Origin: an uncultured delta proteobacterium | GTDB taxonomy: Bacteria > Desulfobacterota > Binatia > UBA9968 | Length of the DNA: 64,000 nt | Assembly: GCA_963771465.1 (NCBI GenBank) | Contig: CAVYTU010000013.1 | Location: 128,001 to 192,000, forward strand | Direction: 5' to 3' | Shown: positions 24,952 to 63,008 of the stretch, piece by piece | Numbering within the stretch: the stretch's first letter is position 1 | Layout: each line of letters begins with the position of its first letter | Made by a program: the position numbers and the translations under genes | Notes under the pieces: generated by a model | The model's input: the letters and a program-made list of their open reading frames with translations, nothing else | Database searches by the model: none | Told to the model about the DNA's origin: nothing

Positions 24952-25000
24952 CGTCACATTTCTGCAAACATTTGCTGCCGTTCATCGCAAATTTGGGACA
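24952..25000. promoter_or_regulatory. Tandem 18-bp palindromic activator sites
   Basis: CGTCACATTTCTGCAAAC (24952) and CATCGCAAATTTGGGACA (24983), 31 bp apart. Confidence 0.6.
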
Positions 25001-25486
25001 CGAAAATGCGGGCGCGATGTGGTGTTTCGAGCAGCGCCCGGGTCGCAATGAGATGATTTGCTGCGTAGTCATCTAAGATAAATTTCCTTCCTTACCCTCT
25101 GAACATCACATGCAGCGAGACAATGATCGTCGCCGTATGCCGAGATTGATCGAGCGGCTATGAATATTGCGTGACCGCGTTTGGAGGGAAAACCAATTTG
25201 CCGCCCGAGGCAGAAAATCGCGCCGGGGCAAAGGAGCTTGAAGTGACCTGCACGAGCCGAGAATGCAAGCCGTCGGAGCAGTAGCAATTGACGTATGCTG
25301 CTGAAACTTTTTGGCCCACCTAAAAGTTGGACTCAAAATTGCCTATTGATACGGTAGAGTTGCAAGTTTTCCGAGTGTGACACGCGCACGGCAAGCTGAG
25401 GAGATTGTTTAAGCTGGCTTTTTGTGAGCGCGGCCGCAACGAGGGCTTGAATTCGTAATCATCTTTATGATTATGTACTTCGGGAA

Positions 25487-25536
25487 CGTCCCAAATTCGG
25501 GACGGTCAGTAATGCATTTGTCCCGTAAATGAGACA
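25487..25536. promoter_or_regulatory. Tandem 18-bp palindromic activator sites upstream of the bEBP gene
   Basis: CGTCCCAAATTCGGGACG (25487) and TGTCCCGTAAATGAGACA (25519), 32 bp apart. Confidence 0.8.
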
Positions 25537-25576
25537 GACTCCTTCGTGAAATCTTTATAAACCGCAGTCTCATTTT

Positions 25577-25592
25577 TGGTACGGGGATTGCC
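25577..25592 (+). promoter_or_regulatory. sigma54 promoter
   Basis: TGGTACGGGGATTGCC. Confidence 0.75.
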
Positions 25593-25625
25593 CTAAAATG
25601 CTCTTATAAAAAAGAGGAGAGTGTC

Positions 25626-60556: not shown

Positions 60557-61051
60557 ATGGAAAAACCGAACGAACCCGCGCCGATGCGCGAAACCAACGG
60601 AGCTGGCCAAAGCGAGCGGAGCGAGCCTCTCAAGAGCATCGTGGAAAACTTGAAAGAAACGGGCAAGGAGAGGCTCGCAAACGAGAAACAGGCGGTGGCC
60701 GAGCAGGCCGAGAAGTTGGTGGATGTGGTCCAACGGGCGATCGACGAATTGGGCCGGGTCGATTTTTTGTCGATCGCCGGGTACGCCAATCAGCTGGCGT
60801 CGACGATGAAAAGGTTTGCCGACAAACTGCACAATAGTAGCATTGAGGATTTGCTCGATGAAACTCGCCGCGCCGCGCGCCGTAATCCCGAACTGTTTTT
60901 GTTGGGCAGCATTGCCGCCGGCGTGGCTTTGTCGCGTTTCTTCAAAGCATCCCAACAGCGGGAATCGCCTGGGCGGGCAACAGCGCAGGCCGAGGATGAC
61001 GACCGGCATATGGAGCCCGCGCGTGATTACACTTACGCTGCCGGCGATTAG
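60557..61051 (+). CDS. Helical stress protein (nutrient-deprivation-induced / ElaB-like C-terminal anchor)
   Basis: ARRNPELFLLGSIAAGVALSRFFKAS. Confidence 0.78.
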   Translation: MEKPNEPAPMRETNGAGQSERSEPLKSIVENLKETGKERLANEKQAVAEQAEKLVDVVQRAIDELGRVDFLSIAGYANQLASTMKRFADKLHNSSIEDLLDETRRAARRNPELFLLGSIAAGVALSRFFKASQQRESPGRATAQAEDDDRHMEPARDYTYAAGD

Positions 61052-61068
61052 GAGAGGAGGTCTTGATC

Positions 61069-61740
61069 ATGGTATTGGAAACGACATTCCGCGATGAGCG
61101 CGCCTTAGAGGAAAAAAAGTTGTCGCCCAGCAATTTGCTCGATACAGTTATAAGTTATTTTCGCGCGCACGGCGGTGAAATGACTAAGGCGGTCGGCCGT
61201 TTTGCGAAAGACCATCCCGCAGTGGCTCTCATGGGTGTCGGCGTCGCCTGGATATTATTAACGCCAAAATCTGCCAACGACTTGGAACGCGATGGGTCCG
61301 TTTCTGGCCGCGACGGTCAGGAGGACGCGACTGAGGAGTATGCGGGCAATCGAAGCACCAGCAAAGCAGGCGACGAATCGATAGAGGGCAACCCTTCAAC
61401 GATCGGCGCTGCCAAAGAGCGCGTGAGCTCGGTCGCGCGGCACGCTGTCAAACGGGCGCAATCACAGACCGAACCCCTGACGCGCGGGCTGAGGGTTATT
61501 GCCCAAGAGCAGCCGTTCTTGCTCGCTGCCATAGGAATGGCCATCGGTGCTGCTATTGGCGCGGCATTGCCGGAGAGCGAACCCGAGCATCGCTGGCTCG
61601 GTCCGGCGCGTGATCGGACGTTGGGCAAAATAAAAGCAGAGGGCGAACATGCCTATGAGCAAGTGCGCGGCGCCACTCAACGAGCGGTCGAGGGCGTCAA
61701 GCAGGCGGTGTGGGAAGTGGCGACGGGAAGTAAAAATTGA
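61069..61740 (+). CDS. DUF3618-associated / LEA-like stress protein
   Basis: KDHPAVALMGVGVAW and EQPFLLAAIGMAIGAAIGAALP.SE.E...LG..RD motifs. Confidence 0.75.
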   Translation: MVLETTFRDERALEEKKLSPSNLLDTVISYFRAHGGEMTKAVGRFAKDHPAVALMGVGVAWILLTPKSANDLERDGSVSGRDGQEDATEEYAGNRSTSKAGDESIEGNPSTIGAAKERVSSVARHAVKRAQSQTEPLTRGLRVIAQEQPFLLAAIGMAIGAAIGAALPESEPEHRWLGPARDRTLGKIKAEGEHAYEQVRGATQRAVEGVKQAVWEVATGSKN

Positions 61741-61815
61741 AAGACTTAAAACGCCGCCGGTGTCCGAGGCACCCAAGGATTTCCACACCGGAACCGTCTT
61801 AAGATCGTTCGACCG

Positions 61816-62805
61816 ATGGCTTTTTCTTCTCGCGGGCAGAGTCAGCGTGCCGGCACGTTTGAAACTGACCGCAAACCGAACCAAGCTGTTCTCCGGCCAA
61901 AGTTAACGGCGCTCAGAGAGGTTTTCGAATTCGGCGGCCTTAGTTGGAAAGAGCTTGGTAGGCGGGTCATTGCCGGTGTTCAGAGGACCGACTGCTCTGG
62001 CTACGCCGCGGCGCTCGCTTACTATTTTTTATTTTCCTTGTTTCCCTTCCTGATATTTCTCACCGCGCTGCTGGCCTATTTGCCGCTCGGCGATTGGTTC
62101 GAACAGGTGATCGCCCTACTGGCGCGGTTCATGCCAGGCGCGGCTCTGGAGCTGGTGCGCGATTATCTAAGCGTTCTGCTTTCCCAACAGCGCGGTGGCT
62201 TACTGTCGTTCGGGATTCTAATCGCGCTCTGGACCGCCTCAAACGGAATGTCGGCGATATCGGGCGCTCTCAATCACGCCTACGGAGTGGAAGAGGGACG
62301 GCCGTTTTGGAAAGTGCGCGCTATGGCGATTCTGTTAACGGTCGGATTGTCGATCTTTCTCATCGCCTCGATCGTGTTGCTGATTTTTGGCCCGCAGATC
62401 GGCGGTTATATCGCCAATTGGATGGGACTGGGGACGGTGTTCGAAATCGGTTGGAATATCTTGCGCTGGCCGGTCATCTTGATCCTGGTTACGACCGCGA
62501 TCGCGGCGATTTATTACTTTGCCCCGGACGTCGAACAACAGTGGAAATGGATCGCTCCGGGTTCGCTGTTCGCGGTAATCCTGTGGACCATCCTTTCTTT
62601 GGGTTTTTCTTACTATGTGAATAATTTCGGCTCCTATGACAAAACCTACGGCAGTATCGGCGCGATCATCGTTATGCTCACATGGATGTACGCCAGCGGA
62701 TTCGTCATTCTCGTCGGCGGCGAAATCAATGCTGAGATCGAGCACGCGAGCGCGGGAGGCAAAAACCCTGGGGAGAAGCAGACGCCAGACAGCGTAATGG
62801 CATAA
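61816..62805 (+). CDS. YihY/BrkB family membrane protein
   Basis: AAALAYYFLFSLFP and YDKTYGSIGAIIVMLTW motifs. Confidence 0.92.
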   Translation: MAFSSRGQSQRAGTFETDRKPNQAVLRPKLTALREVFEFGGLSWKELGRRVIAGVQRTDCSGYAAALAYYFLFSLFPFLIFLTALLAYLPLGDWFEQVIALLARFMPGAALELVRDYLSVLLSQQRGGLLSFGILIALWTASNGMSAISGALNHAYGVEEGRPFWKVRAMAILLTVGLSIFLIASIVLLIFGPQIGGYIANWMGLGTVFEIGWNILRWPVILILVTTAIAAIYYFAPDVEQQWKWIAPGSLFAVILWTILSLGFSYYVNNFGSYDKTYGSIGAIIVMLTWMYASGFVILVGGEINAEIEHASAGGKNPGEKQTPDSVMA

Positions 62806-63008
62806 GTAATAGATTTGCTCTGGCTTCCTTAAATAAGATGAACAATGCCAATTTTTCTAGTTTCCGCTTTTTAAATGCGCCGGGTGAGATTTGCGCTAAA
62901 TCCTATCGTTGACACGCCATCACTTGGTATCTGTCCTAAAACTGCAACAGCGCAATTGACTCAAGGCGGATTTCGCTCGGTTAACGTGCTTCTTTGGAGA
63001 CCCTTAGT

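Follow-up and report, generated by a model that had tools for sequence, protein, structure and literature searches.

Paired 18-bp palindromes upstream of sigma-54-like promoters: probable enhancers of a stress regulon in an uncultured member of the Binatia

In the enhancer of glnAp2 of enteric bacteria, NtrC sites lie near -140 and -108; these two dimer sites, about three helical turns apart, nucleate an oligomer that loops to the sigma-54 holoenzyme. The present work concerns 18-bp inverted repeats, mostly in pairs, in a 64,000-nucleotide stretch of DNA from an uncultured delta proteobacterium of the Binatia (assembly GCA_963771465.1, contig CAVYTU010000013.1, positions 128,001 to 192,000; the contig is called C13 below, and 'the window' means the whole stretch), and the bacterial enhancer-binding protein (bEBP) encoded among them at 25626-26981. 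Other described systems come close to them in different respects. The GlrR protein (QseF/YfhA) of the Enterobacteriaceae recognizes TGTC-N10-GACA, three copies of which activate the sigma-54 promoters of glmY and glmZ (PMC3045617). In Acidithiobacillus caldus the sigma-54-dependent two-component regulator TspR is linked to an upstream activating sequence (UAS) of the sox-II cluster, TGTCCCAAATGGGACA (PMC6335251). DVU3305 of Desulfovibrio vulgaris Hildenborough has predicted targets labelled 'General stress response, transmembrane transport' (PMC4641369). Judged from their sequence and placement, the palindromes of the window very probably serve as upstream activating sequences for the 25626-26981 protein, which has a receiver domain (REC), a sigma-54-type AAA+ domain and an HTH_8 domain.

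The likeness to the NtrC enhancer lies in the two dimer sites some three helical turns apart; the NtrC half-sites differ from those found here, where the sites are also closer to the promoter and the genes are concerned with stress, not nitrogen. The 25626-26981 protein is not assigned to NtrC (TIGR01818, 402.1 bits against a cut-off of 558.6). With GlrR, as far as the consulted part of that source describes it, the window shares the outer bases TGTC-N10-GACA, the 18-bp geometry, the presence of several sites upstream of a sigma-54 promoter and a REC-AAA+-helix-turn-helix (HTH) regulator. The three GlrR sites, however, lie more than 100 bp upstream, depend on IHF and serve two small RNA genes rather than a large protein regulon, and the inner half-site bases CCA/TGG, conserved here, fall outside the GlrR consensus given in the same part of the source. 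The protein is no GlrR orthologue either (NF011695, 341.3 bits against 763). The half-sites of the TspR sequence, TGTCCCA and TGGGACA, are identical with those described here. That UAS has a 2-bp spacer, is 16 bp long, is known to us as a single cited sequence and belongs to a thiosulfate oxidation target; a TspR-type UAS (TGTCCCA-N2-TGGGACA) is therefore rejected, the spacer here being 4 bp. DVU3305 is likewise a sigma-54-dependent two-component bEBP with stress-labelled predicted targets. The regulon table of that paper gives it two neighbouring operons, as against dozens of promoters here, and the string 'TGTC' is absent from the paper's text (PMC4641369).

The activator gene and the sequences in front of it are as follows. 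Scores in bits, here and below, were obtained with a matrix learnt from other species.

25626..26981, + strand: gene of the proposed activator, a response-regulator bEBP with REC, a sigma-54 AAA+ domain, an AAA lid and HTH_8 (Pfam)
25487..25536: strongest pair of sites, 25487 and 25519, 32 bp apart (18.7 and 19.6 bits), upstream of the activator's own predicted promoter
25566..25583: third site (13.2 bits), the right half of which is the -24 element (TGGTAC) of the activator's own predicted promoter
25577..25592, + strand: sigma-54 -24/-12-like element TGGTACGGGGATTGCC, 49 bp before the activator ATG

The sequence-only reading of this DNA had proposed the consensus TGTCYCA-N4-TGRGACA. Taken literally it fails: there is no exact copy in the window, and the bare core GTC-N10-GAC occurs 13 times over the whole window, where 13.68 occurrences are expected. 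A looser palindrome is nevertheless real. With up to three mismatches to the written consensus there are 15 matches against 4.67 expected (100 shuffles, the largest giving nine), 14 of them at 24983-62932 and 12 coinciding with sites already listed by that reading. The signal is thus degenerate and confined to one region, and is best searched for with a weight matrix. All 26 of the listed coordinates do carry sequences of the kind described, if loose ones, and the motif discovery that had been suggested bears this out. De novo expectation maximization (EM) on 2927 bp upstream of 18 sigma-54-like elements gave TGTCCCAATATTGGGACA (11.7 bits, about 29 sites; consensus TGTCCCA-N4-TGGGACA) and recovered nearly all of the listed sites. 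The same palindrome was returned when no symmetry was imposed on the window regions, and no second shared motif emerged from them. Positions 1-4 of the matrix read T, G, T and C and positions 15-18 their complement, and all sites found, in the window and in other species alike, have a spacer of 4 bp; an inverted repeat of this size suits an HTH dimer, as expected of a bEBP upstream activating sequence.

The likelihood null for EM could not be used, Markov-1 surrogates having scored above the real data through degenerate motifs, and it was replaced by training across species and by controls with permuted matrices. An outside matrix was learnt from 16 other genomes, in each of which the 270 bp preceding the orthologous bEBP gene were taken; unconstrained EM on these regions, which include zero window data, produced TGTCCCGAATTTGGGACA (16.3 bits). 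Applied to the 26 listed sites, this matrix gives a genome-wide p<1e-3 for 24 and p<1e-4 for 19. The island of stress-type genes at 24-63 kb contains 24 hits of at least 10 bits, where the genome-wide density predicts 2.4.

A sigma-54-like element was defined as a sequence with GG and GC fixed and at most two mismatches to TGGCAC-N5-TTGCW. The window has 27 of these, 26 of them at 20856-63488 and the single one in the first 20 kb intragenic; most have a ribosome-binding site and a start codon within 30-115 bp downstream. The genome carries one copy of rpoN (C14:367875-368351) and so encodes sigma-54 together with a bEBP that has both GAFTGA and a DNA-binding domain, the equipment that an enhancer presupposes; it also has three genes of the HU/IHF family. 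The association of the palindromes with such elements extends across the genome. With the matrix trained on the window, 28 of 1369 elements are preceded by a pair scoring at least 20, whereas 20,000 random positions lead one to expect 1.1, and 16 of these 28 elements lie outside the window. The 1400 best genome hits of the outside matrix form 21 pairs with a spacing of 30-33 bp, and for 17 of these a sigma-54-like element in the proper orientation lies no more than 150 bp away; 30 column-permuted palindromic matrices gave on average 1.3 pairs (at most 4) and 0.10 beside an element (at most 2).

Within the pairs the distance from centre to centre is 30-33 bp, mostly 31-32 bp, which corresponds to three helical turns. 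The spacing of 30-32 bp noted earlier holds for eight of the ten neighbour spacings among window hits of at least 8 bits with the outside matrix, and the histogram peaks at 30-33 bp outside the window too. Of the 11 pairs that had been claimed, both sites reach 8 bits in eight and a single site is good in two; in the last, 52488/52520, neither site is strong. Five of the listed sites are weak or fail: 60038 (-1.2 bits), 24952 (3.6), 30980 (6.3), 52488 (5.7) and 52520 (5.6). The further copies at 29679 and 29698 are present, 19 bp apart and in that respect exceptional, and the pair 53021/53052 (31 bp) and the third site at 25566 are additions to the earlier list.

The sites stand upstream of the GG-N10-GC elements and not over them, as sigma-54 enhancers do. 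The upstream position had been proposed from the sequence, and a site of at least 8 bits indeed lies within 150 bp upstream of 15 of the 18 intergenic or near-intergenic elements; of the others, 52427 has weak sites only, and 20856 and 60496 have none. Location between divergent promoters was also correctly described: three site pairs lie between the elements 29620/29797, 40377/40564 and 42002/42206. Between the pair 25487/25519 and the -24/-12-like element that precedes the bEBP gene the distance is 41 bp. Over 33 combinations of element and pair, the centre of the proximal site is 37.5-145.5 bp upstream of the -24 GG, and the distances cluster at about 39.5, 50, 60.5, 71.5 and 83.5 bp. A period of 10.75 bp fits them best (R = 0.55, n = 33), with a Rayleigh p of ~1e-4 at 10.5 bp that is too optimistic, since divergent promoters are counted twice and paralogous loci are included. 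Even so, this pattern is what short-range dependence on the face of the helix predicts.

The translation of 25626-26981 is that of a complete bEBP, with D54, the Walker A sequence GESGVGKE, GAFTGA and the recognition helix LGLSRSSLYRK; it falls below every NCBIfam equivalog cut-off, the best hit being AtoC (456 against 714). Twenty-one orthologous loci were collected from other species (62-93% identity; metagenome-assembled genomes labelled 'uncultured delta proteobacterium' or 'Candidatus Binatia'), 20 of them with upstream DNA. In 14 of these 20 the bEBP gene is preceded by a TGTC-type pair exactly 31 bp apart and then by a -24/-12-like element; of the remaining six, one has a TTC-type pair, one a single site and four nothing at the threshold used. 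The half-sites upstream of the orthologues hold while the spacer bases vary, which, as far as sequence can tell, is as expected for a protein-binding site. The left half-site of 25566, CGTCTCA, is conserved beside TGGCAC in L021-L026, orthologues of 76-93% identity, and it is possible that this third site serves negative feedback by occlusion. The enhancer of NtrC type under one master activator, which the sequence-only reading had suggested, is thereby supported, as promoter link, spacing, phasing, the domains of the bEBP and its apparent autoregulation all agree.

There is a further line of evidence in the recognition helix itself. The orthologues fall into two groups by its start, ...LSRSSLYRK and ...LSLS[ST]LYRK. 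When pairs 30-33 bp apart were collected with a matrix blind to site positions 2 and 17, the loci with SRS had G at half-site position 2 in 85 of 102 half-sites, and those with SLS had T in 54 of 70 and G in 6. The second group includes a paralogue in the genome of the window itself (C13:418909-420252; 60% identical), encoded behind a histidine-kinase gene, with Leu for Arg at the start of the recognition helix. Around it (C13:410000-440000, L108/L109), and also in L008, L010, L037, L039, L040 and L041, palindrome pairs of the TTC...GAA type occur with the same spacing of 30-33 bp, and several of these pairs precede sigma-54-like elements. A scan for this motif with a TTTCGCA-type consensus and mismatches gave 419 hits across the genome and was not discriminative. 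Seven upstream regions taken from the island of the paralogue yielded only low-complexity output on de novo EM, so that the TTC-type motif rests on the blind matrix scan. In Fis, the prototype of HTH_8, the single critical base contact is that of Arg85 with a conserved guanine close to the outer edge of each half-site (PMC4784862). The C-terminal domain of the 25626-26981 protein matches the DNA-binding domains of NtrC4, NtrX, NtrC1 and Fis, and R437 would be equivalent to Arg85, judging by alignment coordinates. Such a guanine contact fits both the TG at positions 1-2 of the sites and the pairing of Arg or Leu with G or T; unlike the sites described here, the Fis core is 15 bp long and is read mainly through DNA shape. 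The pairing amounts to a simple candidate rule of specificity for HTH_8 and could help in predicting the sites of orphan bEBPs.

We consider it likely, on the sequence data presented, that the bEBP of 25626-26981 runs a sigma-54 regulon with the palindromes as its upstream activating sequences, in the following manner. Each 18-bp site would bind one dimer of the protein through its Fis-type HTH, and two sites 31-32 bp apart would place two dimers on one face of the DNA. On phosphorylation of the receiver domain in response to some signal, these dimers would seed the AAA+ ring, which could then contact the sigma-54 holoenzyme 40-85 bp further on, in helical register with the promoter, and activate it. 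The activator would drive its own gene as well, and its targets would be about thirty promoters of general-stress and dormancy-type genes, at least twelve of them in the island.

Other explanations have to be set against this proposal. The palindromes might be genuine sigma-54 enhancers that belong to another bEBP, for example the paralogue at C13:418909-420252, with 25626-26981 merely among the targets. The genome has about 55 bEBP-like matches, so that the assignment to 25626-26981 rests on autoregulation and covariation; moreover, the paralogue adjoins a kinase gene and 25626-26981 does not, and HTH_8 proteins with similar half-sites are found among unrelated bEBPs such as TspR. Against that, the clade of the paralogue has Leu and not Arg, its loci carry TTC...GAA and not GTC...GAC, and in one species after another the SRS-type gene keeps its TGTC pair despite unconserved neighbours; control by a different bEBP is accordingly thought unlikely. 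It is a good deal less probable still that the palindrome is the operator of a repressor, or the site of a nucleoid protein, that silences stress promoters. All sites but 25566 lie 40-125 bp upstream of the -24 element and keep helical phase with it. A bEBP is required at sigma-54 promoters whatever else binds there, and no other shared motif emerged from the same regions; the covariation, moreover, concerns the bEBP's own HTH. What can be said for repression is that an inverted repeat alone fits an activator or a repressor equally, and that site 25566 overlaps the -24 element.

The possibility that deserves least credence is chance, or an effect of composition in AT-richer intergenic DNA that resembles the -24 sequence TGGCAC. 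It draws on the failure of the strict consensus and of GTC-N10-GAC over the window, and on the resemblance of TGGCAC to the half-site TGGGAC, through which some matrix hits are the -24 elements themselves. The pairs that were counted, however, end at least 27 bp before the promoter element; permuted matrices of the same composition gave a mean of 0.10 promoter-linked pairs where 17 were observed; and the motif was recovered independently from other species. Tested in this way, by the other-species matrix, the enrichment in the island and the permuted matrices, this explanation is rejected.

Several observations count against the enhancer reading itself. Five of the 26 listed sites are weak with the outside matrix, and the island elements 20856 and 60496 are without any site; the phasing statistic is inflated, as noted above, and the EM significance test tried initially was defeated by degenerate surrogates. 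No cognate histidine kinase stands beside the bEBP gene, here or in seven orthologous loci, and in those seven no neighbour of any kind is conserved beside it. The SRS and SLS proteins form two clades, and the covariation may therefore reflect a single evolutionary event rather than many independent switches. The size of the bEBP complement weighs here as it does above, and the host is known only from metagenome-assembled genomes. RNA data are also available. Six metatranscriptome runs contain 29-46% of sampled words of 25400-31900, and in four runs, each from a different study, there are contigs that match many of the island genes with at least 95% identity (X18 record 19 covers 27118-27686, for instance, and X13 record 5 covers 29929-30652). 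Records 10 and 12 of X14, on the other hand, run across a site and its promoter, and as contigs from RNA libraries bridge the sites, the predicted starts gain no support from them. These data are assembled contigs with possible DNA carry-over; stretches that they leave uncovered are uninformative, and they are silent on transcription starts and on sigma-54 dependence.

The region from about 24 to 63 kb is an island of stress-type genes (Pfam, NCBIfam). The families represented include BON, YtxH, DUF948, YjbJ/CsbD-like, Dps/ferritin, YflT, BrkB/YihY, hemerythrin, a large catalase and DUF892-like proteins; there are also AI-2E transporters, a PLD-family enzyme, a glycogen-debranching-type hydrolase, a GT1 glycosyltransferase, a topoisomerase IB, a PAS-PAS hybrid histidine kinase and one bEBP. 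The other sites of the island are given below, with the sigma-54-like elements and genes that they precede.

24952..25000: pair, 24952 weak and 24983 strong (3.6 and 17.3 bits), upstream of element 24897-24912 (- strand) and then of the uncharacterised gene 24251-24862 (- strand)
28233..28281: pair (10.3 and 11.9 bits), upstream of element 28178-28193 (- strand), which precedes the CsbD/YjbJ-like gene 27928-28134 and then YtxH and DUF948 genes
29679..29715: sites 29679 and 29698, 19 bp apart (8.3 and 13.2 bits), between elements 29605-29620 (- strand) and 29797-29812 (+ strand), the latter preceding the Dps/ferritin gene 29866-30414 (Pfam)
30980..31061: sites 31012 and 31044 and the weak 30980 (15.7, 11.5 and 6.3 bits), upstream of element 30927-30942 (- strand) and the small open reading frame 30687-30839
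31674..31723: pair (9.2 and 16.9 bits), upstream of element 31585-31600 (- strand) and the BON-domain gene 31233-31541
40409..40457: pair (17.4 and 11.0 bits), between element 40362-40377 (- strand; PLD-family gene) and element 40564-40579 (+ strand; uncharacterised gene 40613-40885)
42115..42164: pair (10.5 and 15.8 bits), between element 41987-42002 (- strand; PG_binding_1 protein) and element 42206-42221 (+ strand; GT1 glycosyltransferase 42295-43371)
47394..47441: pair, 30 bp apart (12.7 and 10.9 bits), upstream of element 47493-47508 (+ strand), which precedes BON 47545-47949, YflT 47973-48536 and an AI-2E/B12-binding protein 48862-50679
50711..50759: pair (11.8 and 8.9 bits), upstream of element 50813-50828 (+ strand) and the YflT-domain gene 50927-51262
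52488..52537: weak, doubtful candidate pair (5.7 and 5.6 bits), upstream of element 52412-52427 (- strand) and a BrkB/YihY-family gene
53021..53069: pair found by EM, 31 bp apart (11.6 and 7.2 bits), upstream of element 53120-53135 (+ strand), which precedes DUF1003, CBS-YflT, a DUF892-like gene, catalase 56034-58499 and DUF6766
60007..60055: good site 60007 and, at 60038, a right half-site only (11.3 and -1.2 bits), upstream of element 59952-59967 (- strand) and the hemerythrin gene 59457-59906
62932..62949: lone strong site (17.8 bits), with no partner at 31 bp, upstream of rhodanese/CBS genes from 63091, with only a poor -24/-12-like sequence in between

Definition of the regulon across the genome, which had been put forward as a use of the motif, works: 16 further promoter-like elements outside the window are found, again at stress genes. 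The targets predicted there include the genes for a second catalase, for a CsbD protein followed by a Holin-X-family membrane protein, for BrkB, polyphosphate kinase and an AI-2E transporter, for two PG_binding_1 proteins resembling the one encoded at 41237, for a GFO/IDH oxidoreductase followed by an alpha-amylase-family enzyme, and for a CBM48 protein, M48 peptidases and receiver-only proteins. Several are situated on C13 itself, 30-45 kb further on (C13:223-235 kb). One of the other species has a second pair flanked by divergent sigma-54-like elements, of which one faces an HSP20 gene beside a gene with hibernation-factor and cold-shock domains. No match in this genome exceeds the proteobacterial equivalog cut-off for RpoS (best 294 against 378.7 bits), a model that may not fit this phylum.

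The element is in itself of a well-known kind, a bEBP enhancer. What goes beyond the routine is the size and coherence of a stress regulon under sigma-54, the strict two-site architecture phased with the promoter, and the Arg/Leu-G/T switch. Literature searches, in listings and selected passages, found no description of this combination of motif and regulon or of the specificity switch, and no sigma-54 regulation described in Binatota/Binatia. It is quite possible, and is offered tentatively, that the general stress or dormancy response of the lineage is run by sigma-54 and one autoregulated two-component bEBP at some thirty phased two-site enhancers, and not by a dedicated sigma factor of the kind of RpoS, SigB or EcfG, and that the 60%-identical sister bEBP runs a second regulon from sites of the same architecture, re-aimed by a single Arg-to-Leu replacement that is matched by G-to-T in the sites. 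If this is so, an uncultured soil lineage acquires a regulatory map in which a single cis-element links a candidate regulator to about thirty target promoters, many small target proteins without assigned function are placed in a stress context, and the sigma-54 regulon concerned is unusually large and coherent in its devotion to stress protection. A 31-bp pair in helical phase with the promoter would also be a natural test bed for the short-range nucleation of bEBP rings.

Some observations on individual genes and elements may be added. Beyond the pair 31674/31706, near 31793 on the + strand, is TGGTTTGGTATTTGCT, with three mismatches in its -24 part; it may drive the operon 31827-36774, which encodes AI-2E, Meth_synt_2-like and hybrid histidine kinase proteins, and in that event a candidate sensor kinase would come under the same control. 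At 20856-21353 a receiver-only gene is preceded, at a distance of 54 bp, by CGGCACACCCATTGCT, a good sigma-54-like element that has no palindrome upstream and is probably served by another activator. The tRNA gene 18965-19038, the sole Rfam match in the window, is at the margin of the region in which the stress island starts. Within the PG_binding_1 gene 41237-41932 (- strand), at 41248-41419, sigma-54-like matches (TGGAACCGC.CTTGCT and similar) follow one another, partly at 15-bp intervals; they belong to a coding repeat with a likeness to the promoter consensus and are not promoters. The PLD-family gene 38745-40347 (- strand), downstream of element 40377, is made up of two overlapping open reading frames in different frames (38745-39899 and 39535-40347) with PLD motifs in each, which reflects either a frameshift or an assembly error.

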